A DNA stretch of 63,103 bases, counting the filler, from Candidatus Woesearchaeota archaeon (GTDB lineage: Archaea; Nanobdellota; Nanobdellia; Woesearchaeales; J072): assembly GCA_003695265.1 (NCBI GenBank). It is 6 parts of 6 records of this genome, joined end to end, with 100 filler letters (N's around TTAATTAATTAA, not from the genome) between each part and the next. Parts side by side here need not be neighbours in the genome. Positions count along the whole stretch, not along the records: positions 1 to 14,575 come from RFII01000081.1; 5 more parts are not named here. One strand, 5' to 3'. Below, piece after piece: positions 1-45,738 of the stretch. The translations under genes and the position numbers were made by a program. Numbering within the stretch: position 1 is the stretch's first letter; each line of letters opens with the position of its first letter. The notes under the pieces were generated by a model. That model saw only the letters and a program-made list of their open reading frames with translations, did not search any database and was not told the DNA's origin.

Positions 1-1
1 A

Positions 2-1330
2 TCATCAAATGATTTCCTGCTGAAGAACGGCGTTGTTGAAAAAGCAGGCTTTAGCATTAGTTCTGGTCTTGGAATAAGGTACTTGATAAATGACACTCCC
101 GGCTTCGTATCAATAAACAGGCTGGATAAGGAATTGGTTAAGAGGCTGCTTGAGCGCTCTATCAGTTTGACAAAGGATTCTTCAAGAATTTCAAAGAGAA
201 CATGTTTTTCTGATGAGAAAACGCGGAAAGACGATTACAAAGTCAAACAAAAGATTGGCTTGAATGATCTAGAGGCTGATGAAAAGATGAAAGTCCTCCA
301 AGACATTGAAAAGGAGTTGAACTCGCTTAAAGTAAAAGTTCCGGGAAGGTACCTTTCCCTTTCTGACGCGCTGATAAAAAAGTATTATGTTAATTCAGAA
401 GGCAGCAAAGTCTCATCTGAGATTCCCAAAATAAACTTTTTTTATTTTCTCACAGTTCTTGTGGATAACCAGCAAATTCAAAGGTTTTGGCAGTACGGCT
501 CAAGCTCAGGTTACGAAATTCTCGAGGAATGGAATCTAAAAGAAAAGTTAAGAGATGAGGTTTTAGGAATGGAAAAAAATGCCAAGCACGGCGTAAAAGC
601 CCCTGCTAAAAAGCTTGATGTTGTGTGCTCTCCCGAAGTTGCAGGGATAATCGCGCACGAGGCTGCAGGCCATCCTTACGAGGCTGACAGGATTCTTGGA
701 AGAGAGTCAGCCCAAGCTGGCGAATCATTTGTAACGAAGGAAATGATTAATACAAGAATAGGATCAGAAGTTGTAAACCTTGTTGATGATCCTACAGTCA
801 AGAACAGCTTCGGATTTTACAAGTATGATGATGAGGGCGTGAAAGCAAGGCAGAAACTTCTCATAAGAAAAGGAATTATTAATGAGTTTTTGCACAACAG
901 GGAAACAGCAAAAGAGTTAGGCACAAAAAGCAATGCTTCTGCAAGGGCAAACGGCTTTGACGTTGAGCCTTTGATAAGAATGTCTAACACTTTCTTTCTT
1001 CCGGGAGAGTACGGCGATGATGAGATTATAGAGGACACAAAGATCGGAATTTACTTCAAGAATTTTATGGAGTGGAACATTGATGATGTCCGCCTAAACC
1101 AGAAGTACGTTGCGAATGAGGCCTACTTGATAGAGAACGGCGAGTTAACAAGGCCCGTTAAGAGGCCTGCCATAGAAATAACAACCCCTGTCCTTTACAG
1201 CTCAATCAATGCCGTTGCAAAAACAGTCGAGCTTCACGCAGCTACTTGCGGGAAAGGAGAGCCGATGCAGGGCATTCCAGTCACTATGGGAGGGCCGAGG
1301 ATAAGGATCGCGAACATAAGAGTGCATTAA
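2..1330 (+). CDS. tldD: TldD metalloprotease subunit (5'-truncated by window edge)
   Basis: HEAAGH metal motif, DDEGV, PLIRMSNT and CGKGEPMQG motifs; frame is open back to the window start. Confidence 0.92.
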   Translation, partial: SSNDFLLKNGVVEKAGFSISSGLGIRYLINDTPGFVSINRLDKELVKRLLERSISLTKDSSRISKRTCFSDEKTRKDDYKVKQKIGLNDLEADEKMKVLQDIEKELNSLKVKVPGRYLSLSDALIKKYYVNSEGSKVSSEIPKINFFYFLTVLVDNQQIQRFWQYGSSSGYEILEEWNLKEKLRDEVLGMEKNAKHGVKAPAKKLDVVCSPEVAGIIAHEAAGHPYEADRILGRESAQAGESFVTKEMINTRIGSEVVNLVDDPTVKNSFGFYKYDDEGVKARQKLLIRKGIINEFLHNRETAKELGTKSNASARANGFDVEPLIRMSNTFFLPGEYGDDEIIEDTKIGIYFKNFMEWNIDDVRLNQKYVANEAYLIENGELTRPVKRPAIEITTPVLYSSINAVAKTVELHAATCGKGEPMQGIPVTMGGPRIRIANIRVH

Positions 1331-1331
1331 G

Positions 1332-2651
1332 ATGGAAGTCTTAGACAAAATCAGCAGGGAGCTTGAGAAGATTAATGCTGATGATTATGTTATTTCTCAG
1401 GCTAAAAGTAATGCAAGCCATGTTAAGTTTGCAAACAGCAAAATAGTGAAGACTGGTGTTGAAACGCTGAACCTTATAGACCTTTTTGTGGTGAAGAAGA
1501 AAAGGATAGTAACAACGTCAATCCACAAAACAGATGATAAAAACATAAAGGAGACTGTTCAAAAGGTTAAAAAGTTTTTGAAACTCGTTCCGGAAAACAA
1601 GAATTATGTTGGAATTGCAGAAGGGCCTTTCAAGTACATAGAAATTGATGATTCTTATGATAAGAGGGTTGGAAAAGAGGACATTGTTGAGCATGTGGAA
1701 AAAGCAATAAGCGTTGCGGAAAGCTTAGGAATAAAAAGGTGTGCCGGCGTCTTGGACGCTTATGACATATACTTAAGCCTTTTGACATCCAATAATGTTA
1801 GGGCTTCTGATAAGGCGACAAAACTGTATTTTTCAATCAGGTGCCATAAAACAAAAGATGCTTCCGGCCATATGACAGCATGCAGTAGGGTGCTTTCCAA
1901 GTTTGATACTGAAAAAGTTGCTGAGCACGCAGCAAGAATAGCAAGCCTTGGCAAGGGAAAGAAGAATCTGAGCCCTGGAAATTATGACATAATATTTGAG
2001 CCTTTGCCAATGGCAGACTTGCTGAACACTGTGATGGATTCTGCATCTATTTTTTCTGTTGAAGCAAACATTTCATTCTTTAAGGGATTGCTCAACAAGA
2101 AAGTCGCTTCAAGCAAAGTAACGCTGGCGGATGATGCTACGATGAGGAATGGTTTTAATTCGGCGATGTTTGACCAGGAAGGGGTTCCAACGCAAAGGAC
2201 AGAAGTAATAAAAAACGGCATTCTGAAGAGCTTCCTTCATAACACTTCAACTGCTAAGCGCCACAAAACAAAAACAACTGCCAATGCTGGATTGATATCG
2301 CCGAGCCCTTTTAATATTGTTCTTGAGCCGGGCGATTTCAGGAAAGATGAAATTTTCAGAGAGATGAAGAGAGGGCTTTACATAACAAACCTGTGGTACA
2401 CTCGCTTCCAGAATTACGCGACAGGGGATTTCTCAACGATTCCAAGAGACGGCGCGTTCATTGTTGAGAACGGAGAGATAAAACAGGCTGTGAAGAACAT
2501 AAGGATAAGCGAGAACATACTTAACCTTTTGAAAAACGTTTCTGCTTTGGGCAGGAAATCTTACCAGATAAAGTCTTGGGAGGCAGAAACTCCTGTCACG
2601 CTGCCATTGACTCTTGTGAAGAATTGCAGGATTACGAAGCCTGAGAATTAG
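1332..2651 (+). CDS. tldE: TldE/PmbA subunit
   Basis: Directly follows tldD; FDQEGVP, NLWYTRFQN, GDFS motifs; no HExxxH. Confidence 0.9.
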   Translation: MEVLDKISRELEKINADDYVISQAKSNASHVKFANSKIVKTGVETLNLIDLFVVKKKRIVTTSIHKTDDKNIKETVQKVKKFLKLVPENKNYVGIAEGPFKYIEIDDSYDKRVGKEDIVEHVEKAISVAESLGIKRCAGVLDAYDIYLSLLTSNNVRASDKATKLYFSIRCHKTKDASGHMTACSRVLSKFDTEKVAEHAARIASLGKGKKNLSPGNYDIIFEPLPMADLLNTVMDSASIFSVEANISFFKGLLNKKVASSKVTLADDATMRNGFNSAMFDQEGVPTQRTEVIKNGILKSFLHNTSTAKRHKTKTTANAGLISPSPFNIVLEPGDFRKDEIFREMKRGLYITNLWYTRFQNYATGDFSTIPRDGAFIVENGEIKQAVKNIRISENILNLLKNVSALGRKSYQIKSWEAETPVTLPLTLVKNCRITKPEN

Positions 2652-3022
2652 CCAACAACGTACATGACTTGTATGGAATGCGACTTGCCTGGCAGGTTAA
2701 TCAGCTTGTCTGCCTTGTACCTCTGGAGGTCATAGTAACTCGTGTTTTCAGGCAGGCCGTAAAGCCTTGCCTCTTTGTACGTGTAAATGACTCTGTCAAG
2801 CAGCCTGCTGAGCCTGGCGCTCCTCTTAACAGGCAAGTTCAATATTTGGGAATAATCATTTATTGTCACCTCAACAGTTTCCCATTTGCTGTTTCTTTCA
2901 ATTTCTTCTAAACTCGCGTATTTTTCGTAGCGCGGAGAAATGCCAAAGTCAGAATAAATGCTGGAAATAAATGCTGTAAATATGATAAATAGGAAAAAGG
3001 AGAGTTCACCTCTTTTTTTCAT
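2648..3022 (-). CDS. Hypothetical protein with N-terminal hydrophobic anchor
   Basis: 124 aa ORF, MKKRG plus hydrophobic segment; stop overlaps tldE stop. Confidence 0.55.
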   Translation of the reverse strand: MKKRGELSFFLFIIFTAFISSIYSDFGISPRYEKYASLEEIERNSKWETVEVTINDYSQILNLPVKRSARLSRLLDRVIYTYKEARLYGLPENTSYYDLQRYKADKLINLPGKSHSIQVMYVVG

Positions 3023-3176
3023 GTTATTCTCCTAGATTAATTGGTTTAAATATTTTCTTGTGCTGTGAAAGATAGGTTGTAAAGGTTGTTTTGCAATAAC
3101 TGAGGGTTTAAGGGGCTCTGCCCATTGTAAATGTATTGCACAACATTTAAATATTAACCAGTGTTATTCCCAAATC

Positions 3177-3332
3177 ATGAAATGCGAAGTCTGCAAGAAC
3201 AAGATTAATGAGCACTTCCTGAAAAAAATAATAGGCACTGTTGTGAAAGACAAGAAAGGCAAAAAGCATTACGTCTGCGCGGAGTGCCAGAAGAAACTGA
3301 AGACAAAGGAAGAAATTCTTAATAAAATTTAA
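3177..3332 (+). CDS. Small zinc-finger protein (51 aa, not in ORF track)
   Basis: Manual translation MKCEVCKNKINEHFLKKIIGTVVKDKKGKKHYVCAECQKKLKTKEEILNKI; two CxxC pairs; TATA-like TTTAAATA upstream. Confidence 0.75.
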   Translation: MKCEVCKNKINEHFLKKIIGTVVKDKKGKKHYVCAECQKKLKTKEEILNKI

Positions 3333-3339
3333 TCAACTT

Positions 3340-3513
3340 GCACACTAGCTTAGATGGCAAATCTTTAAAAAAGATTTGATAGAAACTATTCAAGTGCAAT
3401 ATTCACAAAGTGAAATTGCACGGAACGCCCCAGTAGCTTAGGTGGCAAATTTTAAATAAAATTTGATAAAATTTATTCAAGTACCATATTCACTTCGCGA
3501 AATGGTACGAAAT
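3340..3513 (+). repeat. Two tandem 87-nt units, each a tRNA-Thr 5' fragment plus a two-hairpin element
   Basis: GCCCCAGTAGCTTAG at 3427 and 3514, degenerate copy at 3340; each unit continues TGG-CAAA..TTTGAT..CAAGT..ATTCAC..GYGAAAT..ACG. Confidence 0.85.
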
Positions 3514-3598
3514 GCCCCAGTAGCTTAGTGGCTAGAGCAGCCGCCTCGTATCATGCAAAGAAAGCGGCAGGTCGGGGGTTCAACTCCCCCCTGGGGCT
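3514..3598 (+). tRNA. tRNA-Thr(CGT) with 12-nt anticodon-loop intron (3551-3562)
   Basis: Acceptor GCCCCAG/CTGGGGC, anticodon stem GCCGC/GCGGC, loop CT-CGT-A|A, T-arm GGGGG-TTCAACT-CCCCC. Confidence 0.92.
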
Positions 3599-3616
3599 TA
3601 TTTTCTTTTTGCAAAT

Positions 3617-3713
3617 TTAAGTTAGTTTTGTTGAGCTGGAAAATTGTAAAAATTTTTAGTCCCACCCACACCACCCTAAAAATTAATGCTTGTCACAATT
3701 AAGCTGGCTTAAC
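3617..3713 (-). repeat. Dispersed intergenic repeat, copy 1
   Basis: Core TTAGTCCCACCCACACCACCC with conserved flanks. Confidence 0.85.
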
Positions 3714-3762
3714 AATTTTTACAAAGAAAATATTAAATATGAAAAATAACTGAAAGAGAATA

Positions 3763-4761
3763 ATGAGGATAATATTCTTGATAATGCTCAGTTTATTGCT
3801 TTTGTCCTGCTCTAAACATATTGAAATTGAAGCTCAAAAAACAGGAAACATTGAAGAGATAACAGGAAATGCAGTTGCAGTTCAGGATATGGCAGAAGGA
3901 AAAAATGTTTCTTTTGAGAATATTAGCATTAAGGAAGGTTGCGTCCTGACTGGGTTTTTAGTCAATGAGAAAGGAAGGAATTTCTCAAATATCACAATCC
4001 TGGCAAGGCACGCTGGCAGCGTTGACAAAACAGAAATTGATTTTGTTTATCCGGGAGAGACAAGCCCGTTCAGGATAAACATAACGACGAAGAAATGCCA
4101 TTACAGTTATAATTTAATTGCGGAATCAGAAGACGGCATGAACGTGTCGAGATTGGTTAGTTTTGAGCGCAACACTTGCGGCAATGGCATCTGCGAAGAA
4201 AATGAGAACGGCTGCAACTGCTCTGACTGCAAGCCCTGCTCCGGCTTTGCCGGGACGTGCATGATTTTCAGCTGTACAGAAGGGAACGAATGCAGGCCTA
4301 AAGTGATTGAGAATTGCGGCTCAATGATAAGAATAAATGACAAGTTCAGGGGTTTTGGAGAGAAGGTTCTCTGCCCTGTGAGGCTGAATTACAGCATTGA
4401 ATACCCAAAGCCCCTTGTCCTTAACAGGTCTGAGATAAGGCTTAGTTTTTACATGAAAAGAATCATTGATGACGAGTGCTCTGACTTCAAGGTAAGCAGG
4501 ATAATGATAAGGGACCAGGGCTCGGTTTTTTTTGACGAAGAAATTGATGAGGAATTGGATGAGGGTGATGCTTTGGTTTTAGACTTTGTTTTCAATGAGA
4601 CTTTTAGGGGTATGGAAAAGGATTCTGACCCTTCATTTTTTGTAGAGTTTAATGCATGGACTGTTGATGATGGGAAAAGCAGGTTTGTTGAGGACAGAAT
4701 AAAAGTGATTAATCCTGATAAAGACCTTGTTATGATTAATCCGGGATACGCGCAAAGTTAA
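3763..4761 (+). CDS. Putative lipoprotein with Cys-rich (CGNGICE) module
   Basis: Signal peptide ending LLSC; CGNGICEENEN...C..DC cluster. Confidence 0.7.
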   Translation: MRIIFLIMLSLLLLSCSKHIEIEAQKTGNIEEITGNAVAVQDMAEGKNVSFENISIKEGCVLTGFLVNEKGRNFSNITILARHAGSVDKTEIDFVYPGETSPFRINITTKKCHYSYNLIAESEDGMNVSRLVSFERNTCGNGICEENENGCNCSDCKPCSGFAGTCMIFSCTEGNECRPKVIENCGSMIRINDKFRGFGEKVLCPVRLNYSIEYPKPLVLNRSEIRLSFYMKRIIDDECSDFKVSRIMIRDQGSVFFDEEIDEELDEGDALVLDFVFNETFRGMEKDSDPSFFVEFNAWTVDDGKSRFVEDRIKVINPDKDLVMINPGYAQS

Positions 4762-6923
4762 TGCCTTGTTCTTGAAGCTTCTGAATATTCTATTAAAACA
4801 TTTGTTGCCGCGGACTGAAGTTGCGAGAAATGTGAGAAGTGATAAAAATTCACGTTCGGAAGTGTATCTGCGAACCTTTCAACGCGCTGAGCAAACATTC
4901 CCTTATGAAACATGGCAAAGTATAATATGCTCGTGTTTGGGTGTGCTGCCAATTTCTGTATTTCCTTCATATTTGCGTCATGATCATTATCAAGGTCGCC
5001 GTCCGCGACGAATATGTGCACCGTTTTTCCAGGAACGCATCTTGATTGCGCTAGTTGATAGGCTGGAATATCATAATAAGTTGAGCCGCCTTGAGGGTTA
5101 AGCATGATTTGCTTCGGATTGTTATTTGGGGTTTCATAAAAAGTCTCCAAGTCAATAGCATCACTTACGACAGTATGCCCCGCATTGCTGTAGTTAACCA
5201 CAACAACATTCGGGTTTTTATTCATTTCCCTTGCAGCATTAAGCAGCGTCTTAACAATGCCATAAGCCACATTGCATAAAGCATCAAACCTGCATCCTGA
5301 GCCATATATCATGCCAGGTTTCCCATTCCCATCTTGAAGCATGCTTCCTGAAGTGTCAAAATGAAACACAACATTATCCGGAAGCTCTAGTCCGGATTTC
5401 TCAAATTGGAAATCTTCTATTGGGATTTCTTCCCATTCATAAACATCATACCTGTACTGGTATGGTGTTAATCTTGTAACTTGAGATATTCCTGTTTGTG
5501 AAAAGAAATCATGAATTTTGTCCCAGGGAAGATTCATTAGTTCTGCATTTGTTAAGAAATGACTTTCTACTTTAACAGGCCTCCTGACTTTACCCAATTC
5601 AACAGACACTGCCTCAAGCCTTGGTGACTGTATTGGCAGGGGCCTTGCATTTCTTTTGTAATAAAGGTCTTTAGCAAGGTTTGAGAGCCTTTTGTTTCTA
5701 TCAGTCCTGGGATTATTATTATCATTGGCAATCCCCAGTAAGAAACTGCTAATTTCATCGCTGGCTTCATCGCCCATTTCATCAACGAGGTCCTGCAATG
5801 ATTCTTCTGCGCCGCCACCTGGCTGGTTTGGATCAGTTTGCGCATCACCGGTTTCGCTTCCGTCTCCTAATTGGGAGCCGTGCCTGTCCTCTTCTTTTGT
5901 GGTGGAAATAAATTTAGACAATGGAGCAATAAAGCCTTCAATAGACTTATACCTTGTGGTCTTGTCAAAAAACACTTTTGTAATTTTGTCAATGAGATAT
6001 GCATGCGCCTGATCACTTGTTTGTTTTGGATCATCGTACAACTCGTCAACATAATCCCTGAATCTTTTAGGATTAATCCTGTGCTTTCTTAAATCATCAA
6101 CGTCAAGATGTTTAATGATTCCGTTGAGGGATTCTTTAATCACTTGTTCAAGGGTTGCGTCGCTGATTCTTGCGCCCATTTTTTGCCTGAAATAATCAAA
6201 AAGGTTTGCTCTTAATTCACCACCTCTTGTAAAAAGAAGAGAATACATTGCTCTTGTAACAGGATAAAATAATGAGTTCGGCTCTTTGCCAGCTAATTCA
6301 ACAACATCCCATGTTCCAATAACCCCATCAGGGAGCTCTTTTATCTTATGTGCGCCTATTCCTTTGTTCCTTCTCTCAAATTCCATAGCTATTCTTCTTT
6401 CAAGTTTGTTATTGAAGTTAGACAAATAAAAAAATATGTCATCAATAAGAAAATCCCATACAGCGTTTCTTGCATTGCCTATTTTATTATTCACGTCCCT
6501 GTCAGAAAGATGCGGTTCTGCTTTTCGTATCCCTCTGTAAAGGGCAGCAGCAACCTTTTTTCTGTCATCTGCAGAATCTGGACAATAAAGGGGATGAAAC
6601 AATTCATGAAAAAAAAGATAAGTGAATGTGTCTTGTATTAGGTTTCTAACAAACCTAGCTTTGTCTTGGTCGTCAACCTGAAACCCATAGCTTTTCTGAT
6701 ATAAATCAGCAACAACTTCTTCAAAGGTTTTTTGAATGACATCAGGTTTGAAAACCAATGCCTTAATCTCATTGTTGTTTGTTGAGAAAGACCAAGGTCT
6801 TCGTGCGTTTGGGTCAGGATCAGCTCTTCTAACGGGCGTCCTGGAAAACATTGGCTCCTCAACAAGAACTATTTCCCTCCATATCCTCTCAGAGGTGATT
6901 AGGTCTTCTTGAACAGGATGCAT
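4758..6923 (-). CDS. HEXXH metallopeptidase-like plus C-terminal vWA domain protein
   Basis: FHELFH motif; acidic Gly-rich linker; MIDAS FDTSGSM, GGST, VADG. Confidence 0.8.
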   Translation of the reverse strand: MHPVQEDLITSERIWREIVLVEEPMFSRTPVRRADPDPNARRPWSFSTNNNEIKALVFKPDVIQKTFEEVVADLYQKSYGFQVDDQDKARFVRNLIQDTFTYLFFHELFHPLYCPDSADDRKKVAAALYRGIRKAEPHLSDRDVNNKIGNARNAVWDFLIDDIFFYLSNFNNKLERRIAMEFERRNKGIGAHKIKELPDGVIGTWDVVELAGKEPNSLFYPVTRAMYSLLFTRGGELRANLFDYFRQKMGARISDATLEQVIKESLNGIIKHLDVDDLRKHRINPKRFRDYVDELYDDPKQTSDQAHAYLIDKITKVFFDKTTRYKSIEGFIAPLSKFISTTKEEDRHGSQLGDGSETGDAQTDPNQPGGGAEESLQDLVDEMGDEASDEISSFLLGIANDNNNPRTDRNKRLSNLAKDLYYKRNARPLPIQSPRLEAVSVELGKVRRPVKVESHFLTNAELMNLPWDKIHDFFSQTGISQVTRLTPYQYRYDVYEWEEIPIEDFQFEKSGLELPDNVVFHFDTSGSMLQDGNGKPGMIYGSGCRFDALCNVAYGIVKTLLNAAREMNKNPNVVVVNYSNAGHTVVSDAIDLETFYETPNNNPKQIMLNPQGGSTYYDIPAYQLAQSRCVPGKTVHIFVADGDLDNDHDANMKEIQKLAAHPNTSILYFAMFHKGMFAQRVERFADTLPNVNFYHFSHFSQLQSAATNVLIEYSEASRTRH

Positions 6924-6926
6924 TAC

Positions 6927-8930
6927 TTACACCCCAAACATCCTTGATAATCTTTGATGATATATCTCTTCCGAAGTTGCGTCCTGCTTTTTCTCTTTTA
7001 ATAAGGCTTCAAGCTGCCCAAGTTGTAATAATGCTCTTTGCCCTTTATCCTTTTCTTTGAGAGTTTCTTTGAATCTTGCCTGAATATCCCCTTTGTATTC
7101 ATCAATAAATCCTGCGAATGTCGCGATGTCTGCAATAGCCCTTGCTATTAACAGTTTTTTAACGTCGCTTCCTTGATCAAGGGTTCTTAGCTTTCGGACT
7201 GCTGTCTCCAGCGCTTCTATCATCGGCTTTGCATATTCATCTGGGGTGTACTCTTGACCTGCTTTCATTCCTGAGATTGAACGAAGCGCAAAATGTATTG
7301 CATAATTCCTGATTGCACATGCATCATTATCAATTGAAAACCCTGGGCTTTTCATTTCAGCTGCGAAGTCATTGAACAGTCCAAGATAATCTGTAAGTAC
7401 TGTGTTTACTAATTCGATTGGGTCTCCGTCAGCGTTTGGCTGTTTTTTATCCGACAAAACGATTGAGTAAGCATCAGCCATGTCTTCTAAAGTGATGTAA
7501 GGTGATTGATCAAGCAATGCAGTCAACGGATCTGGATGCTTCAGTGCTTCTGTGAAATCCTTAATAGTTGCCAGCAAGTCAGCTATTTTTTTTGATTTTG
7601 CTGTGTCCCTTCTGATAAAGTCCTCTTCAAACTTAATTCCTGCAATCCTTTTCATCTTCTCAGACTCATCTTCAAAAGTTTGGTCGTATGTAAAATCAAC
7701 CCCATAAGCTGCAAGTCTCTCGGTCCAGTCTTTAGCATCTTCACACTCTATTTCAAATTCCCTTTTCAGGTTTCCGGAAGCAAGGTAAATAATGCAGTCT
7801 GAGAACTCCAAGGCAGATTTAATTATGCGTTTTTCAGTTTTCTTCGGATCTGTTGTGAATGCATAAAGTGAGAGCATGTTTAAGTTTGCAGCTTCCCTTT
7901 CTTCTCCATCTCCCAAACCACCGCCTGGCAGTAGAATTTTCTCTAATGATCTTGCAACAGCAGATTTAGGAGCAATGCCAAGTAATTCGCAGAGATAGCC
8001 TAAATAGCTCTTCCTAAACCTCAGATGCTGTTTGTTTTGTGATTGAGTAACATAAATTGAAGAGCCGTCACGTGAGGCTGCATTGGGAACATTTATTGTT
8101 AGGTCTCTGTTTGCGCTTGCCGCATCTGTCTTTACAGTTGCTGAATATTTTGCGTCATCAGCCCTTGCCGGGTTTTGAGCGCCCATCATAACTAATTTTC
8201 TCAGATAATCCTCAGAGAACACAATTTCATATTCGCCAGTAGCATTCCCTTTTTGGTCTTTTTTTTCGCGAATCAATGGGATAAAAGTCCCTAAATAGCC
8301 GCGTTCTCCTGTGCTTAACGCTATTTCAGAGTCCTGCATTTGTAGCACTTGGTTTGTGTCTCCCCTGTTTTTTTCATCAACGAACAAAAATACGACCTGC
8401 CTCATGGCATTACGGTTTAAGTGAAGGTATAAGACGCCGTCCCTAATCTCACCGTTGATGTATGGCTGTTGAACGTTAGACATTGCAAAGTTCAACCTTA
8501 ACACTTTTGAGAACTCTTCAGGTAACACAGTCTTCATGTATTTCTCAACTGAAAATGTCTTTCCTATTCCTGTGATGCCCTCAAAAAGAAGCGGAATTCT
8601 GTCCCTGTAATTTGCGCCTATGATCATATCCATAAGGGTTATGTCGCGGGAAAATTCTTTTGGCACTCTTGCCCTTCCTTCAAGCAGTTCAAAGTCCACA
8701 GTGTTATTATTAGGATTAAAGGTTAATCTGTAAAGGGGTGTTGGTGATATTTCAAGACTAATAGTATTATAGACTGCTCTAACCATTGCAAGTTCGCTTG
8801 CTGCCTGAATCCTCCTTGTGATCTCGTCCGCATCCTTAAATCCTTTCTTTGCAAGATGGGCTACTAAAAGATCTAACGCCTCAGCCCTTGGCTGAAATTC
8901 TTCTTGCTGTGCTGATTTTTCCTTCATCAT
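6927..8930 (-). CDS. Divergent MoxR-like AAA+ ATPase with long C-terminal extension
   Basis: Walker A EGITGIGKT, Walker B LFVDEKNR, sensor-1 GAQNP, DAASANR; adjacent to vWA gene. Confidence 0.75.
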   Translation of the reverse strand: MMKEKSAQQEEFQPRAEALDLLVAHLAKKGFKDADEITRRIQAASELAMVRAVYNTISLEISPTPLYRLTFNPNNNTVDFELLEGRARVPKEFSRDITLMDMIIGANYRDRIPLLFEGITGIGKTFSVEKYMKTVLPEEFSKVLRLNFAMSNVQQPYINGEIRDGVLYLHLNRNAMRQVVFLFVDEKNRGDTNQVLQMQDSEIALSTGERGYLGTFIPLIREKKDQKGNATGEYEIVFSEDYLRKLVMMGAQNPARADDAKYSATVKTDAASANRDLTINVPNAASRDGSSIYVTQSQNKQHLRFRKSYLGYLCELLGIAPKSAVARSLEKILLPGGGLGDGEEREAANLNMLSLYAFTTDPKKTEKRIIKSALEFSDCIIYLASGNLKREFEIECEDAKDWTERLAAYGVDFTYDQTFEDESEKMKRIAGIKFEEDFIRRDTAKSKKIADLLATIKDFTEALKHPDPLTALLDQSPYITLEDMADAYSIVLSDKKQPNADGDPIELVNTVLTDYLGLFNDFAAEMKSPGFSIDNDACAIRNYAIHFALRSISGMKAGQEYTPDEYAKPMIEALETAVRKLRTLDQGSDVKKLLIARAIADIATFAGFIDEYKGDIQARFKETLKEKDKGQRALLQLGQLEALLKEKKQDATSEEIYHQRLSRMFGV

Positions 8931-9724
8931 TTTAATCCTCTAAGAGTATCTCGGATTTCAATAACACCATCAATATATTGCTTTATACGTGTTATGCCTA
9001 GCCTTTCTCCAACTTTCAAGATGACGGAAGTGCTAACAAGAGGGTCGTATTTATGCGTATGTTTTTGCATTAATTCATCCAGTTGGGCAACAGATTTTCT
9101 TTTATATCCCATCTCATCCAAGCACTCGCTTAGAAAAGGTCTTAGCTCCGGCCTTGTCATCATGAGAAATAAGTAAGGGTCATCGACACCTGGAATAGTT
9201 TTATTATTTATTTTAGTGAACATACTGAATTCAGGAAAAAGTGATGTTAGAGTATTTTGTGTAAGATCAAAAACCTGGCTTTCATCCTGAAGATTTAAGA
9301 AATCAGCAATATCTGTTGTGCACAAATAATCAAAATCATAATGCTGACTTGATTCAAATACATGTCTTAAGAGGGGTGATGGAATTGGAGTGTCAGGTCT
9401 TATAAGAAAATGAATGGTAGTCCCAGTATGGGTTGAGGTCAATTTAGGTTCAAATTTTAAAGCATAAACACCAAGTTCTCTAAGAATAGTTTTTTCAAGT
9501 GGTGTTCTTATCTTAAAATAAGGAGATCCTTTAATAGTTAAAAAATCAAGAAGCCTGTCTTTTAGAGTAAAATCTTCAGTAGTGTAAACAGTTGTTTCAG
9601 ATGCAGGCTTAGTAGGTTTGCTGTCAGGCTTAACAACCACTGGCTCCTCGGGATCCTGTTCGCCGAAAGGAACAGCACCACCACTTGGTACAATACCATC
9701 TTCCTTTCTTCTTTTTGGTGTCAA
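8927..9724 (-). CDS. Hypothetical protein
   Basis: 265 aa; TTG start preceded by AAGGAGGT; overlaps both neighbours by 4 nt. Confidence 0.8.
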   Translation of the reverse strand: MTPKRRKEDGIVPSGGAVPFGEQDPEEPVVVKPDSKPTKPASETTVYTTEDFTLKDRLLDFLTIKGSPYFKIRTPLEKTILRELGVYALKFEPKLTSTHTGTTIHFLIRPDTPIPSPLLRHVFESSQHYDFDYLCTTDIADFLNLQDESQVFDLTQNTLTSLFPEFSMFTKINNKTIPGVDDPYLFLMMTRPELRPFLSECLDEMGYKRKSVAQLDELMQKHTHKYDPLVSTSVILKVGERLGITRIKQYIDGVIEIRDTLRGLK

Positions 9725-9861
9725 TTTGACCTCCTTAAAACCTTTATTTTTAGTTCGACGAGTGTCTGGGGTTTTAAGTCTTCGTAAAGTATCTTTGGCA
9801 ACACTATTATTGATTGGTTGCCGTGCTTCGCAATCTTTTTTGTTAGTGTGAACTCATCCAT
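9721..9861 (-). CDS. Small AbrB/MazE-like DNA-binding protein (46 aa, not in ORF track)
   Basis: Manual translation MDEFTLTKKIAKHGNQSIIVLPKILYEDLKPQTLVELKIKVLRRSN; KxGNx..ivlPK swapped-hairpin pattern; TGA overlaps next TTG. Confidence 0.7.
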   Translation of the reverse strand: MDEFTLTKKIAKHGNQSIIVLPKILYEDLKPQTLVELKIKVLRRSN

Positions 9862-10028
9862 TTTTATACATAAATGACCCATAATAATGTATTCATTATA
9901 TGGTGGTAAAACATAAGTTATATATAAATTTTTTGATTAGTAATCACTAAATAGTTATAACAGCATATGAGAAATCAAGAATTTGGAAATAGAATAAATT
10001 TAAATAAGGGCATTTCTATAATTAGCAT

Positions 10029-10583
10029 ATGCTCCAAAAAATACAAAACGAGATAGACTCATTGCCCGATAACTTTATTGTAGGCATAGTCACGAAATCA
10101 GACAAGTATGAGAAGGTCAACCTCCACATTCTTAACATGATGCTGCACCAGAAAGGTCATTTTGGCGGTTATGTTGCTGTGAACAGGCCTTACAAGAACA
10201 TGGTTGAGCTTCTTACAAACCAGAACATGGATTTCTCAAACCTTTTCTTTATTGACTGCATAACACAGAAGCTCGGCGGCAGAATAACAAATGATGAGAA
10301 CTGCGTTTACATAAACAGCCCGTCAAACCTCACTGACCTTGCGATTGCCTTGCACAACTTTGCAATTGCAGAAGTGAACGCGAAAAAGTTTTTGATGATT
10401 GACTCAATATCCACGCTCCTAATCCACAACGACCATGAGACAGTGCAGAAGTTCATCCATTACCTCACCGGCAAGATACGCTTGTGGGGCTTAAAGGGTG
10501 TGATGATAACATTGCATGAGGAAACAGACGAAAAACTGATAGCTGAGCTGAGCCAGTTCTGTGATAAGATTATCAGAGTATAA
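10029..10583 (+). CDS. KaiC/RecA-like inactive ATPase-fold protein
   Basis: FFIDCIT, SPSNLTDL, FLMIDSISTLLIHN, QFCDKII; no Walker A. Confidence 0.7.
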   Translation: MLQKIQNEIDSLPDNFIVGIVTKSDKYEKVNLHILNMMLHQKGHFGGYVAVNRPYKNMVELLTNQNMDFSNLFFIDCITQKLGGRITNDENCVYINSPSNLTDLAIALHNFAIAEVNAKKFLMIDSISTLLIHNDHETVQKFIHYLTGKIRLWGLKGVMITLHEETDEKLIAELSQFCDKIIRV

Positions 10584-10614
10584 ATTTAAATAATAATGTT
10601 TTTTCTCGCATAAG

Positions 10615-11607
10615 ATGAGAGGATTAGTAGAGCAGGCAAACAAGGTTTTTCTCGAGAACTTTAAGCCAGAGACATGTTTCGAAAGAGCAATATTCTATTC
10701 GTGGGCGTGCAAGCTTGATAAGTGCTGCACTTTTTGCTATATGTCAACTCTGCCAAAAGAACTGAGGACTAAGGAGCGCGTCAGAAGCATTCCTTCCCTG
10801 TTGGCAGAAACAATTATTTGCAAAAAGCTTGGCTGGGATTACGGCTTTTTATCAGGTGGCATTGGAGTTTTCAGCGATGAAAAAATGGTGAGGCTTCTCA
10901 AAGAAACAAACAAGATTTTAGGAGAAAAGATTTGGGTTAATATTGGTGTTTTGTCAAAAAAGCAAATGGAGAAGTTCAAGCCTTACATAAAAGGGGTTGT
11001 TGGTACGATAGAGGTTCTTGATCCTGGGCTGCACAAAAAGATTTGCCCTTCTAAGCCGATTGGGCCTGTCATAAATATGTTTAGGCAAAGCAAGGAGATC
11101 GGCTTGAAGAACGCAATGACTTTAATAGTGGGGCTGGGAGAGACAATTGAAGATTTCAAATTATTAGAGCAATTCATAAAGGAAAACAACATTTCAAAAA
11201 TTCATATTTATGGCCTTAATATTCAAGAAGGCACTGTTTTTGAGGGCCAAGATCCGCCGACAAAAGAGTATCAGGCAGAGTGGATTGCTCGGACAAGGAT
11301 TGCTTTCCCAAAGCTTGACATTCAGTGTGGAATATGGTCTGACCGCGCTGAATATGTTTGCATACTTTTAAAAGCAGGCGCCAATTCTATCAGCAAGTTT
11401 CCTGCTTTGCGAAAATTCGGCTCTGAAGCAGCAAAAAAAGTTGAGAATGAAGCAAGAAAAGCCGGAAGAAAGTTCAGAGGAAGCCTAACAAGGTTACCTG
11501 AGATTAATGTCGAGAAAGAAGTGGGGTGTATTGATAAGGAATACAGGAATCTGACCGCAAAAAAGCTAAGGCAGTATCTTAAGCAAATGATGAAGGGGAG
11601 TTCTTGA
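10615..11607 (+). CDS. Radical SAM protein, BioB-like family
   Basis: CKLDKCCTFC cluster motif, LSGGIG, IVGLGET. Confidence 0.8.
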   Translation: MRGLVEQANKVFLENFKPETCFERAIFYSWACKLDKCCTFCYMSTLPKELRTKERVRSIPSLLAETIICKKLGWDYGFLSGGIGVFSDEKMVRLLKETNKILGEKIWVNIGVLSKKQMEKFKPYIKGVVGTIEVLDPGLHKKICPSKPIGPVINMFRQSKEIGLKNAMTLIVGLGETIEDFKLLEQFIKENNISKIHIYGLNIQEGTVFEGQDPPTKEYQAEWIARTRIAFPKLDIQCGIWSDRAEYVCILLKAGANSISKFPALRKFGSEAAKKVENEARKAGRKFRGSLTRLPEINVEKEVGCIDKEYRNLTAKKLRQYLKQMMKGSS

Positions 11608-11674
11608 GTTTTTTGTATAAGAAACAAAAAAATTAGGGTTAAGTTAATTTTTAAGGATTGGGATAAAAAAATGG

Positions 11675-11775
11675 GTTAAGCAAATTTTGTTATGCTGAAA
11701 AAATTATGAAAGTGTTTAGTCCCGCCCACACCATCCAATTGCACGAAAGCTTTCTCACTTAAGTTGACAGCACCA
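11675..11775 (-). repeat. Dispersed intergenic repeat, copy 2
   Basis: TTAGTCCCGCCCACACCATCC...AAAGCTTTCTCACTTAAGTTGACAGCACC. Confidence 0.85.
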
Positions 11776-11822
11776 AAAAACCGAAAAATTTATATACTGG
11801 TTTTTACAATATTTATTACCAT

Positions 11823-12839
11823 ATGGTAGTAAAAATATTAATTAAATTGAGGAGAAGCATATCTAAGAGGATTCTTGCGAGCCTTCAGTACAGGACAGGT
11901 CTTTTTGCAGCCGCGAGAAAAGATGTTAGCACAGGCTATAATGCTGCCTGGATCCGCGACAATGTTTATGCTGCTATAGGCGCTGAGAAGTTTGATTTTA
12001 ACAGGGCAATAAAGGCCTATCATGCCTTGCTGGACATATTCTTAAAGCACGAGTACAAGATAGACTGGGCAATAAAGGAAAAGCCGGATGAGAAGTACAA
12101 GTACATTCACGCAAGATATCACCCGATTACATTTGATGAGTTTCACGAGGAGTGGGGCAACATGCAGAACGATGCTGTAGGCGCGTTCCTCTTCAAAGTA
12201 GGCGAGCTTTACGAGAAAGGAATTAACATAATCAGAAATGATGATGACAAGAGAATCCTGCAAAAACTGGTTTTTTACTTAGAAAGCATTGAGTACTGGC
12301 ACGATCCTGACAATGGCATATGGGAAGAGAATGAGGAAGTCCACGCTTCCAGCGTTGGCGCCTGCGTTGCAGGGCTTAAAAAAATAAGGAAAATAGTTAA
12401 TGTTCCTGAAGAATTAATCAGAAAAGGTCAGGAATCATTGAACAGGCTTTTACCGAGAGAGTCAGAAACAAAAGAAGTTGACCTGGCACTCCTCTCCCTT
12501 ATATACCCTTACAATGTTGTTACTCCTAGGCAGAGAGACAAGATTCTTGAGAACGTTGAGAAAACGCTTGTCAGAGAAAAAGGAGTTATAAGGTATTTGA
12601 ATGATCGCTATTACAATAACGGATCAGAAGCTGAGTGGTGTATGGGGTTTCCCTGGCTGGCAATCATTTACAAAATCATTGGGAACGAAGAAAAATACAA
12701 GTATTACCTAAGAAAAACGCATTCTGTCATGAACGCAAAAGGTGAGATTCCCGAGCTGTATTATGGAAAGACAAAGAGGTTTAATGAGAATACTCCTCTT
12801 GGCTGGGCCCAGGCGCTTTACTTGGTAGCAACTGCTTAA
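11823..12839 (+). CDS. GH15 family protein (phosphorylase kinase alpha/beta-like subgroup)
   Basis: AWIRDN, QNDAVG, PDNGIWEE, NENTPLGWAQA. Confidence 0.8.
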   Translation: MVVKILIKLRRSISKRILASLQYRTGLFAAARKDVSTGYNAAWIRDNVYAAIGAEKFDFNRAIKAYHALLDIFLKHEYKIDWAIKEKPDEKYKYIHARYHPITFDEFHEEWGNMQNDAVGAFLFKVGELYEKGINIIRNDDDKRILQKLVFYLESIEYWHDPDNGIWEENEEVHASSVGACVAGLKKIRKIVNVPEELIRKGQESLNRLLPRESETKEVDLALLSLIYPYNVVTPRQRDKILENVEKTLVREKGVIRYLNDRYYNNGSEAEWCMGFPWLAIIYKIIGNEEKYKYYLRKTHSVMNAKGEIPELYYGKTKRFNENTPLGWAQALYLVATA

Positions 12840-14530
12840 AGCTTATGACTGCTATGCACAAAAAACCTCTCAAAGTATTTTTCCAGCTGCTTCTTATTTG
12901 TCCTCTTCAATTTATCTATGCTCACTTTTTTCTGCAGCAGGTTCTTCAAAACTAGTGAGATGTGCTGGCCGCTCAGCATGTGTGGAAGTATTATGTAGTC
13001 TGCGCCAACGTTGTAATATTCAATCGCATCATCAATGTTGTTTGAGGAAACAAACACTTTTGACTTTGGGTTTGCCCTCTTAACATGTTTAATAAGGTAA
13101 AGGTTGTCCTTCTTGTTCGGCACAGTTGAGATCACAATATCAGAGAAGGTTATCTTTCCCAAGACATCATCGCTGTTAACATCACCATAAATGCAGGGAG
13201 TTCTTTCATTTATCAGGTTATTTATTATTGTTGGATCATAATCAATAACAAGAATGTCTTTTTTAAGCTCTTTTAATGTGTCAATCAAAACCCTGCCGAT
13301 CCTATGCCCTCCAAAGATTATTATTGGCTTCTTCAACCTTTTAGGGATGTATTCAAGTCTTTCCCTGTAATGAGGTATTTTATCAAAAACTTTAAGGATT
13401 CTATAAAACTTTTTGTAGAGGCCGTCAGCATGCTCTAAATAATATGATGAAACAGTCATTGAGATTATTGCCAGTAGTATTGTCAAAGAGAATATCTCAT
13501 AGGATATGTGGCCTAAAGAGAAGCCCTGCAATAGTATTACCAAGGCAAACTCGCTTATCTGCGCCAACGAAATTCCTGTCATAAACGCCGTCCTGGTCTT
13601 ATAGCCGAAAAATTTGATGAAAATAGTGATCATTATAGGCTTGAAAATGATTATTACAAGAACCAGCACTATCAAAGTTGATAGGATATTTGAGAAATTG
13701 AAAACGTTTAAAGTTAGTCCTAATGATATAAAAAAAAGCGTCGAAAAAAAGTCCTTTATTGGTTTTATCTTGCTCATCACCTCAAGGTTGTAGTCAGAGC
13801 TTCCAAGGACAACGCCGGCAACAAATCCTCCGATAACAACTGAGAACCCTGACAGGTGAAATGCCAAGGAGAATAGGAACAGCACGCCGAGCGAGCTAAG
13901 GAAAAAAAGCTCTTGTGACTTAGCTGCAAACGAGAAAATAATTGGGACCAGCCTAATAGCAAAAACGTACGCAAAAATAAAGAGGGCGGCGCCTTTAAGC
14001 AATGAGTAAAAGAAAAGAAGAGGTGTCATTTCAGGCGTTGAAAGCACCAAGAGTGCGAGCACGGCCGCCAAGTCCTCGATGAGAAGTATTCCCAGAACAA
14101 CCCTTCCGTGAAGCGTGTCAAGAACGCCCTTGTCCGATAAGAGCTTGACAGCAATCATTGTTGAGCTGAAGCACAAAGTCAAGCCTATGTATATTGCCTC
14201 TAATTTCAGAAAGCCCATCATAATGGCTATTACGAATCCTGTGCTGAAAAGCATGGCTATCTGAATGAGTCCGCTCGTCAGGAAAACAGGGCTTTCCTCT
14301 TTTATTTTCTTAAGGTTTATCTCAAGACCTGCAATAAACAAAAGGAAAGCAATGCCTATCTCAGAGAATGACTTAATAGTTTCAGGGTTTTTAATAAAGC
14401 CAAACCCGAGTGGCCCGAGAATAAGCCCTGCAGCAATGTAAGACAGAATCATAGGTTGTTTTAATCCCCTGCTTATGTAAGCTAAAATGGTGGCTAGAAT
14501 TATGACTGCTCCAACTTCAACCAAAACCAT
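12836..14530 (-). CDS. CPA2 cation/H+ antiporter with C-terminal KTN/RCK domain (Kef-type)
   Basis: Many TM helices; FSSTMIAVK, LLIEDL, QISEFA; GGHRIG, IYGDV. Confidence 0.9.
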   Translation of the reverse strand: MVLVEVGAVIILATILAYISRGLKQPMILSYIAAGLILGPLGFGFIKNPETIKSFSEIGIAFLLFIAGLEINLKKIKEESPVFLTSGLIQIAMLFSTGFVIAIMMGFLKLEAIYIGLTLCFSSTMIAVKLLSDKGVLDTLHGRVVLGILLIEDLAAVLALLVLSTPEMTPLLFFYSLLKGAALFIFAYVFAIRLVPIIFSFAAKSQELFFLSSLGVLFLFSLAFHLSGFSVVIGGFVAGVVLGSSDYNLEVMSKIKPIKDFFSTLFFISLGLTLNVFNFSNILSTLIVLVLVIIIFKPIMITIFIKFFGYKTRTAFMTGISLAQISEFALVILLQGFSLGHISYEIFSLTILLAIISMTVSSYYLEHADGLYKKFYRILKVFDKIPHYRERLEYIPKRLKKPIIIFGGHRIGRVLIDTLKELKKDILVIDYDPTIINNLINERTPCIYGDVNSDDVLGKITFSDIVISTVPNKKDNLYLIKHVKRANPKSKVFVSSNNIDDAIEYYNVGADYIILPHMLSGQHISLVLKNLLQKKVSIDKLKRTNKKQLEKYFERFFVHSSHKL

Positions 14531-14575
14531 GATGATACCTCTTTTTTAATAAGAAAAAAAGAAAAAGAATGTATA

Positions 14576-14675: not shown

Positions 14676-14937
14676 ACGAGAAATGTGCTTCGCACATTTC
14701 TGGGGTGCCAGAAATATACAATTTCTGAGCACCTTTGCCGAGCGTAACTAGCGAAAAAGTTTGTTTCGAACCCCGGATCCCAAGCTCTCTTCAACCAGAA
14801 TGGTTTAGGAGGCTTGTGCCTTATTTGCCCAAAGCTCTGGTCTTGCTCGTGGGGTTTCACGTTCAACTGTGAATGCCCCACTTGACCGCTTTGCATCAAA
14901 GCTTTACTAAAGCTTTGCCAGACTAGGCTACAGGTCC
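14676..14937 (-). tRNA. tRNA-Arg(CCT) with three introns: D-loop 14825-14917, anticodon 14787-14805, T-loop from 14764 into the gap (3' end missing)
   Basis: GGACCTG TA GCCT AGTCTGG|ATA AGGC A CAAGC CT CCT A|A GCTTG GGATC CGGGG TTCGAA|. Confidence 0.85.
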
Positions 14938-20759: not shown

Positions 20760-20920
20760 GCCCCGGGAGGGACTTTCACAAACTTTTGCCGTTTTTCGTG
20801 GGATTTCACTCAGTGAACATCCCACATGATCGCTTTTGATCAAATTTTGGCAAAAATTTGGTTTGAACCCTCGACCTGCGGATTACAAGTCCGCCGCAAT
20901 AGCCACTATGCTACCGGAGC
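20759..20920 (-). tRNA. tRNA-Thr(TGT) with 89-nt T-loop intron (59/60; 20773-20861)
   Basis: Acceptor GCTCCGG/CCGGGGC, anticodon GCGGA-CT TGT AA-TCCGC, T-stem GAGGG/CCCTC; bulge-helix-bulge (BHB) from TTCA/TGAA helix with closing helix CAAATTTTTGCC/GGCAAAAGTTTG. Confidence 0.92.
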
Positions 20921-45484: not shown

Positions 45485-45738
45485 GGACCTGTAGCCTAGT
45501 CTGGCAAACCTTATCAGGTTTGATCGAGCTGTGTGGCGTGCGCTCACTCTGTTCGCTTAGCCACACGAGAATCTGCTTGATAAGAATTGGGCAAATAAGG
45601 CGACGGCCTTCTACGCTTCGCGCGGAAAGCCGTAGATCGGGGGTTCGAAACAAACTTTTTCGCTAGTTACGCTCGGCAAAGGTGCTCAGAAATTGTATAT
45701 TTCTGGCACCCCAGAAATGTGCGAAGCACATTTCTCGT
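45485..45738 (+). tRNA. tRNA-Arg(TCT) with three introns: D-loop 45505-45594, anticodon 45614-45627, T-loop from 45650 into the gap (3' end missing)
   Basis: GGACCTG TA GCCT AGTCTGG|ATA AGGC G ACGGC CT TCT A|A GCCGT AGATC GGGGG TTCGAA|. Confidence 0.85.

Follow-up and report, generated by a model that had tools for sequence, protein, structure and literature searches.

Stacked tRNA 5'-exon and hairpin-element units upstream of an archaeal tRNA-Thr(CGT) gene, possible scars of incomplete intron transfer

The closest described case is that of Caldiarchaeum subterraneum, in which a 1.8-kb element with a recombinase left a 5' tRNA-Thr fragment (Sugahara et al. 2012, PMC3293823). As at the locus described here, the fragment in the account available to us lies upstream of a reconstituted tRNA-Thr, and those authors tied it to intron gain. 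According to the accessible part of PMC9897764, partial tRNA duplications arise from integration. For the Thermoproteales, tRNA intron transposition was proposed (Fujishima et al. 2010, as summarised in PMC4090602 and bioRxiv 10.64898/2026.10.13.758758). In the sections available to us, a census of Asgard tRNA introns reports that heavily interrupted tRNA genes escape standard tools, and it saw hardly any families shared between isotypes and no route by way of mobile elements (bioRxiv 10.64898/2026.10.13.758758). The alpha4-type EndA of DPANN archaea has been linked to disrupted tRNA genes (PMC5829648, in the part consulted). The passages that we have from two of these sources state that the route by which non-canonical intron DNA enters archaeal tRNA genes is unknown (PMC4090602; bioRxiv 10.64898/2026.10.13.758758).

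We analysed a window of 63,103 nucleotides made of six joined contigs of a Candidatus Woesearchaeota genome (G000), in which positions 1-14575 are contig C32. Directly upstream of a tRNA-Thr(CGT) gene lie two 87-nt units, each made up, as read from the sequence, of a copied tRNA start and, after it, a protein-less, ~70-nt element with two hairpins, here called X. Tandem Repeats Finder (TRF) described 3340-3598 as a repeat of period 87 with 2.1 copies, 82% matches and a score of 248, the highest among 32 rows. This agrees with the sequence-only reading of the locus, which had the tRNA start recurring with this period at 3340, 3427 and 3514. The features of the locus, and the three further X copies of the window, are as follows.

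3177..3332, plus strand: 51-aa Cys-rich small ORF, the syntenic anchor upstream of the tRNA, with only sub-threshold Pfam LIM/zinc-finger matches
3340..3353, plus strand: exon copy of unit 1, decayed tRNA positions 1-15, at the putative ancestral position 7 nt past the ORF stop
3354..3357, plus strand: lead of unit 1 (ATGG), D-loop-like, with one base more than the resident gene; probable donor flank
3358..3426, plus strand: element X1 (hairpin 1 at 3358-3378, linker, bulged hairpin 2 at 3394-3421, 5-nt tail)
3427..3441, plus strand: exon copy of unit 2, exact tRNA positions 1-15 by sequence comparison
3442..3445, plus strand: lead of unit 2 (GTGG)
3446..3513, plus strand: element X2 (hairpin 1 at 3446-3465, linker, bulged hairpin 2 at 3481-3508, 5-nt tail joined to tRNA +1)
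3514..3598, plus strand: intact tRNA-Thr(CGT) gene (Rfam RF00005, 58.5 bits) without a D- or T-loop intron
3551..3562, plus strand: 12-nt canonical 37/38 intron of that gene, from comparison with intron-less relatives; ARAGORN also gives a 12-nt intron
14844..14917, minus strand: X copy in the D-loop 19/20 intron of tRNA-Arg(CCT), closing strand present (G000:C33:169-242; BHB central helix 4/4)
20793..20860, minus strand: X copy in the T-loop 59/60 intron of tRNA-Thr(TGT) (G000:C33:6118-6185; profile and covariance model)
45505..45571, plus strand: divergent X copy in the D-loop intron of a second tRNA-Arg gene (G000:C34:12408-12474; E 0.004)

ARAGORN wrongly labelled the tRNA-Thr(CGT) gene as SeC/Ser because of its 12-nt intron; the CGT anticodon is supported by an intron-less relative (L016) with the same anticodon stem. 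The own-exon match upstream of the gene had p=0.003 against 300 resamples. The distal copy at 3340 carries two C>A changes and a 1-nt gap, whereas the copy at 3427 is exact over 15 nt and is then followed by one extra base, so the distal unit is the more decayed one, as first read. The D-loop reads AGATGG in unit 1 and AGGTGG in unit 2 against AGTGG in the working gene. Because of this extra base in both upstream copies, exact duplication stops at position 15 and not at the D-loop GG, and the boundary proposed at first was about 3 nt too long. Hairpin 1 begins directly after RTGG in both units, which is the register of the Arg(CCT) D-loop intron and the start site that had been proposed. A unit in another genome (L203, with a metagenome relative, L284) agrees with unit 1 in its 15-nt duplication, its ATGG lead and the point at which hairpin 1 starts, and the gene at that locus also reads AGTGG. 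From this match, the lead appears to travel with X, which shortens the duplicated exon. The best reading of these sequences is that RTGG came with X and that only 15 nt were duplicated.

Both elements are predicted to fold (X1: z -5.99, 69.7 bits with the covariance model; X2: z -4.13 for 3445-3513, 69.3 bits). The absence of a 3' closing strand that could form a bulge-helix-bulge (BHB), claimed in the sequence-only reading, was borne out. For X2, no closing strand of its own was found, the best complement 3' of it being 6/8 and lying within the tRNA 3' end; for X1, the best complement (7/8) was merely hairpin 1 of X2. The candidate central helices of the two units paired at 1/4 and 2/4 positions, compared with 4/4 in the Arg(CCT) control, and the BHB splice motif is thus absent from both. 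These values, with the lack of a closing strand, ruled out that the units are long introns. Split (trans-spliced) tRNA halves were also ruled out, as a contiguous tRNA gene follows directly downstream.

An assembly artefact, the first concern raised with the original reading, was ruled out by one 2471-nt Logan contig (sequencing run X1) that spans 2400-4600, and with it both units and the gene, unbroken, with one differing letter and no joints; the run possibly comes from the source sample and is hence not independent of the assembly. In order-level relatives (e.g. L005, L008, L011 and L012), the tRNA lies within about 10 nt of the 51-aa ORF. As the relatives' tRNA follows the ORF so closely, the 174 nt are a lineage-specific addition, with unit 1 at the ancestral position. 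Two further sequencing runs gave no contig at the locus, a metagenome search gave no exact match to the first 25 nt of the gene, and the comparison of read contigs and metagenomes gave no strain pair with and without a unit. The ORFs near the locus are unrelated, and no integrase gene was found in the insert or beside the tRNA. The neighbouring genes (window 83-2651 and 4758-9724) are what we take to be a TldD/PmbA-like protease pair and a group of vWA and AAA-ATPase genes. An unrelated repeat of ~97 nt with inverted ends lies at 3617-3713 and has 39 matches in G000 at E<1e-5; it belongs to a MITE-like family, some copies of which seem to have flanking 8-nt direct repeats.

In G000, an iterated profile combined with a covariance model recovered 24 copies of X, and all 24 lay at stable-RNA genes when placed against a hand-built tRNA list; a 25th covariance-model match (E 0.76) was a T-arm and was left out. 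Fourteen copies lie within tRNA introns, 12 of them in T-loop 59/60 introns (one reversed) and two in D-loop 19/20 introns. One lies in the RNase P RNA gene, and nine lie upstream of tRNAs (Thr twice, Val, Gln, His three times and Glu twice). The copies within tRNA loops are predicted to be BHB introns, Arg(CCT) having a fully paired central helix and a closing strand, and removal of the T-loop introns of 81-112 nt would restore the T-stem. The copy within the RNase P RNA gene (Rfam, 101.6 bits) is reversed and lengthens a helix just before the conserved core (L030, G000:C44:19343-19414). The genome has a single EndA gene of 190 aa. Most of its tRNA genes carry long D- and T-loop introns of several module families, and many contigs break there. 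No Rfam family covers X.

We then tested 32 tRNA starts of G000 for an upstream copy of their own exon, as the sequence-only reading had proposed. Thr(CGT), Val(TAC) and Gln(CTG) gave p<=0.007; two other low p values came from neighbouring whole tRNAs, and two further starts at p 0.03-0.04 are likely due to chance. The Val unit repeats with a period of 88, and its last part, an intron-like closing strand, overlaps the GGGC with which the gene begins. The His layout is visible by eye only. At the His and Glu loci (L024 and L032), a forward and a reversed X form a composite whose outer end abuts tRNA +1, and the His locus holds two such composites with a decayed exon between them. Since the layout was found at Val, Gln and His here and in other genomes, the tRNA-Thr(CGT) locus is not the only one of its kind, which would have counted against the original reading.

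Covariance-model matches to X were obtained in 26/149 and 16/80 other genomes of the order. We read 78 foreign copies, which do not include 16 of the matches in the 80-genome set. They lie in D-, T- and anticodon-loop introns of tRNA genes, in 16S rRNA genes (four loci, L214, L217, L250 and L262, three of them at one site), against tRNA ends and between direct repeats. A flanking direct repeat with a score >=11 was present in 32/78 copies, compared with 2/600 in the null set. These repeats, of 11-52 nt, are copies of tRNA 5' ends, tRNA 3' ends, or the starts or ends of protein genes, and X is antisense where tRNA 3' ends are duplicated. In two loci from two families (L204 and L257), X lies 19 nt after the start of what is presumably the same small ribosomal-protein gene. 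X is widespread in the order and has two settings: it lies within BHB introns, or it separates two copies of the end of a gene. The claimed link of insertion to the D-loop GG and to 5' ends held at the present locus but not as a general rule, since elsewhere the element starts after positions from about 12 to 29 and also sits at 3' ends and protein-gene ends.

The junctions are oriented: hairpin 1 faces the displaced copy and the variable tail faces the working gene, which by eye was on the tail side wherever a gene could be named. The two copies agree at 118/192 positions in the 6 nt adjoining hairpin 1 versus 325/346 at 9-20 nt away, the latter value being biased upward because segments were picked by best score. 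This cluster of mismatches near hairpin 1 fits an origin of those bases in the donor. Of 15 tRNA 3'-end duplications examined, 12 were evaluable, and in 7 of these a distance of 6-8 nt separates hairpin 1 from position 60, which is the register of T-loop introns. The central helix pairs at 4/4 in three of these seven scars and at >=3/4 in five, and the repeat of the 3' scars runs 0-26 nt beyond position 73. No intact intron was seen at positions 12-15, after which many units start, so not every event is an intron transfer. In three ORF cases (L271, L226 and L222), the copies differ mostly at third codon positions (5/8, 3/3 and 3/3). Neutral decay would not explain this pattern; the codon positions suggest that DNA from related lineages takes part.

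A narrow repeat pattern for the stacked layout matched 23/401 genomes of the order, compared with one match of a control pattern; without two unpublished genomes (G335 and G244) the count is 21/399. In 20 of the 21 array genomes that were read, the last copy continues as a complete tRNA (Thr or Asn), and in the other it is truncated by the contig end; two further array genomes have a tRNA-Thr at that place. A scan of all GTDB species returned 99 loci, 95 of them unique. Of these, 45 are arrays with archaeal titles (Woesearchaeota, Nanoarchaeota, Micrarchaeota and others), 15 are bacterial, 15 have no title and 20 are tandem tRNAs; they overlap the 401-genome set and are not additive, and a few of the arrays are decayed tRNA copies. 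Among the 60 loci without a bacterial title, 45 have a duplication that stops at 12-15 nt; the range is 11 to 26 nt, the pattern forcing at least 11 nt. Left extension past +1 was at chance level in 52/60, which places the outer edge at +1. Distal decay was seen, by eye only, in the Thr and His stacks of G000 and in L139, and the pattern requires an exact proximal copy, which biases any comparison of polarity.

Thirteen multi-unit arrays allowed neighbouring elements to be compared. Identity was at shuffle level, and the neighbours thus unrelated, in L051, in L071 and at one step of L127. In L110, L116, L127, L128, L133 and the tRNA-Thr(CGT) array they were related (0.58-0.86), and in L083, L139, L151, L157 and L168 they were nearly or fully identical. 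Some arrays hold units of different duplication length. With both unrelated and identical neighbours present, serial insertion and tandem amplification both occur.

Bacterial records were also recovered. In Melainabacteria/Gastranaerophilales-titled and other records (L105, L107, L109, L113, L117, L128, L129, L136 and L139), a conserved unit of 5' exon and element stands in up to three copies before tRNA-Arg(CCT). In Bacteroidota-titled records (L083 and L142), up to five 65-nt units derived from tRNA-Thr precede the gene.

Covariation was present in 17/17 pairs of X over 101 distinct copies, with 94% paired compared with 33-45% in slid controls, in an alignment that was fitted to the structure, and hairpin 2 has a conserved single bulge. 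G-T and A-C mismatches are equally rare in the stems (32 vs 33), with no G-U excess. Apex loops of the form C-RNA-G, counted by eye over 102 copies, number 37 on the reverse strand vs 2 on the forward strand; in DNA, loops of this kind give mini-hairpins of very high stability. The equality of G-T and A-C together with the reverse-strand loops points to a DNA-level hairpin, the constraint on these sequences apparently acting on DNA and not on spliced RNA alone. The tetranucleotide at the hairpin foot is not conserved, being GTAG-like only in a subset. The idea of RTGG/GTAG as a conserved REP-like guide was dropped because leads are variable across the 78 foreign copies.

We read the two units as insertion scars of the protein-less mobile X, that is, as incomplete intron transfers with two events at tRNA-Thr(CGT), and give this reading about an even chance. 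A single-stranded DNA copy of X would be taken from an intron-bearing donor with a few bases of donor flank, would pair by partial homology inside the target (here the D-loop), and would be joined by its other end at the gene boundary (+1). The product would lack a closing strand, have 15 nt duplicated and leave an intact gene downstream, with the scar in a leader that RNase P would trim. Two such events would have occurred here, the distal unit being the older. Where both ends fall in register and there is a closing helix, a new intron would arise by this same route; the only products that selection would then keep are introns that can be spliced and insertions in which the duplication restores the end of the gene. 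Candidate agents are template switching in replication or repair, or a reverse transcriptase (RT) acting in trans. A wider proposition, which we hold only tentatively and consider doubtful, is that single-stranded DNA (or reverse-transcribed) elements without proteins, with X as their mobile unit, form a class not yet described and target expressed DPANN genes. New BHB introns in the genes for tRNA, rRNA and RNase P RNA would come directly from such elements, and failed transfers, rescued by gene-end duplication, would stack as polar CRISPR-like arrays with the tRNA 5' exon as the repeat. If so, polar arrays of tRNA 5' exon and X would be a dated log of intron-transfer attempts.

Whether unit 1 and unit 2 arrived separately bears on this reading. 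The sequence-only reading had claimed compensatory differences between the elements, and this was upheld: 3/20 stem pairs changed on both sides and still pair, and one is broken. Under neutral decay such a pattern has p 6e-5 to 4e-4, which favours two arrivals. In favour of a single insertion followed by plain tandem duplication of the 87-nt unit, X1 and X2 are sisters (72/85) in a 20-copy tree of this genome and X2 is the nearest to X1 among 101 copies (52/68 identical). Their junctions lie at the same position, the two units are equally long and have an AT-rich linker in common, and other arrays show exact tandem amplification (L151, L157, L139 and L083). Such a history would need palindrome correction by template switching to keep the arms matched, in three arm-correcting events with the bulge kept, and gene conversion to preserve the proximal exon. 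X2 is equally near to a His copy (53/68), the start of X1 agrees with foreign copies at four sites where X2 differs, its hairpin-1 subtype recurs in other genomes (L203, L207 and L238), and the exon of unit 1 is far more decayed than that of unit 2. We therefore consider plain duplication unlikely and two arrivals at tRNA-Thr(CGT) rather probable, by a mechanism in either direction. The proposal of successive insertions, each duplicating the 5' exon, thus gains from the general insertion rule, from stacking elsewhere and from the compensatory changes, and loses from the sister grouping; that grouping had been named as evidence against it, yet the layout recurs at other loci. Overall, the original interpretation is partly supported.

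The main rival to insertion is an intron bypass, whose product would be nearly identical. X would first have been a D-loop intron; an intron-less 5' exon, from cDNA of spliced RNA or from a relative's DNA, would then have recombined on the 3'-exon side and been joined illegitimately at +1, overwriting the closing strand, in two cycles of gain and bypass. The extra D-loop base gives 4 nt between D-stem and GG, as a BHB needs, the Arg intron has 19 nt beyond the X core, about one exon length, and the closing strand of the Val unit overlaps GGGC as an intron's would. The splice-junction form kept in 3' scars, the transcript-like edges (at +1, and 0-26 nt past position 73) and the third-position differences of the three ORF cases also suit it. 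Yet a copy of the gene's own spliced RNA would match up to the junction, where the displaced copies differ, and the data examined contain no intron that corresponds to the units at positions 12-15. A complete X intron with the units' exon was not found in an intact gene, the seven matches being six chance ones and one relevant locus, itself a unit, and we regard a bypass as improbable. Remnants of integrase-mediated elements, with attL/attR in the tRNA 5' end, the interior lost and X as an att-arm or end structure, would follow a known route to 5' tRNA fragments (PMC3293823 and PMC9897764, in the parts available), and G000 has one tyrosine recombinase. Its gene is on another contig (C30), the duplication length varies from 11 to 52 nt, X is also present in rRNA and RNase P RNA, at 3' ends and at the ends of protein genes, and no large insert was present among the loci read, which makes this origin very unlikely. 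We see equally little room for a selected leader that controls tRNA processing or transcription through a decoy exon and protein-binding hairpins. Both units retain intact hairpins, several Gastranaerophilales-titled records conserve a related unit, and pairing of the unit-2 exon with the acceptor 3' strand gives an isomer only 3.4 kcal/mol less favourable than the native fold; but the layout is patchy (23/401), the same site can hold unrelated elements, both orientations occur, G-U pairs are not in excess and distal exons are decayed.

For the agent of insertion, we searched G000 (94.6% complete) for the Y1 transposase TnpA (PF01797), TnpB, RT and Cas1, and none gave a match. Cas1 (PF01867) was found in 0/22 array genomes and 1/22 others, and Y1 transposase was not enriched (9/22 array genomes vs 7/22). 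RT was present in 13/23 array-pattern genomes vs 85/378 (p 7e-4; size-stratified 0.005, with genome sizes transcribed by hand), a comparison in which kin are not independent; without the unpublished genomes, the count is 12/21. The association was not replicated with X itself (9/43 X-positive genomes vs 40/187, p 1.0), and the X profile had no match in 30 Y1/RT loci. RT is accordingly a lead only, since the association is significant for one marker and absent for two others. Two RTs that we inspected are presumably of the diversity-generating retroelement (DGR) type, judging by motifs. DGRs dominate the RTs of DPANN and use a DNA stem-loop at the target, according to the consulted part of PMC8632793. 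Adenine-specific changes between copies, judged by eye only, formed no clear pattern. In L172, L178 and L186 (G139 and G269), stacks of short hairpins lie inside IS200-type transposase ORFs, in both orientations and once in frame; they resemble another array-element class, and L173 is an intact homolog.

The interest of the family is that it is visible both as finished introns and as half-finished insertions that keep donor bases, register and polarity, which makes the route of intron arrival testable by strain comparison and junction sequencing. Scars like these may show how new introns enter tRNA and rRNA genes. The family also matters for annotation, as Rfam and ARAGORN recovered 8 and 11 tRNA genes of G000, respectively, compared with >30 readable by hand. 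The literature covered, mostly openly accessible articles, yielded no description of X or of exon-repeat arrays.

The layout is real, and it is a variant of known tRNA-end insertion and intron transposition. The additions here are the stacked arrays, the counts across the order, the signatures of the junctions and of a DNA hairpin, and the searches for an enzyme, which were negative. As in the Thermoproteales, related introns occupy several positions of unrelated tRNA genes, and spread at the DNA level was proposed there; unlike the introns in the summaries available to us, X is longer and structured, occurs in both orientations, is present in RNase P RNA and rRNA as well, and also leaves scars that are not introns and carry duplications. 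In contrast to the Asgard census, as far as the accessible text goes, one family here occupies 14 introns of one genome. Compared with the Caldiarchaeum element of 1.8 kb in the account at hand, the units are ~70 nt, non-coding and stacked, X itself is the intron sequence, and X also occurs at 3' ends and protein genes.

REP/IS200-IS605-derived and Rickettsia palindromic elements are short non-coding imperfect hairpins with an extra-helical base, found in both orientations in RNA genes and ORFs. X resembles them in its imperfect hairpin, in its extra-helical base (the hairpin 2 bulge) and in its two orientations, and differs from REP/IS200-IS605 elements by the lack of a conserved guide tetranucleotide before hairpin 1, by long variable duplications and by the absence of TnpA from G000. 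Unlike a MITE, X has one conserved end and a variable tail, and its target-site duplication (11-52 nt) has no fixed length, with inverted ends present in the intron copies and the His/Glu composite. Of the features of a pNOB8/SSV-type att site, the partial tRNA direct repeat is present, and an integrase beside the tRNA or in the insert is absent. CRISPR arrays and casposon tandem integration at tRNA genes form polar, repeat-spacer-like stacks. The arrays described here share with them the polar stacking and a duplication mode of 12-15 nt, whereas their duplication length varies within arrays, Cas1 is absent from 22/22 array genomes, and the spacers are members of a structured family.
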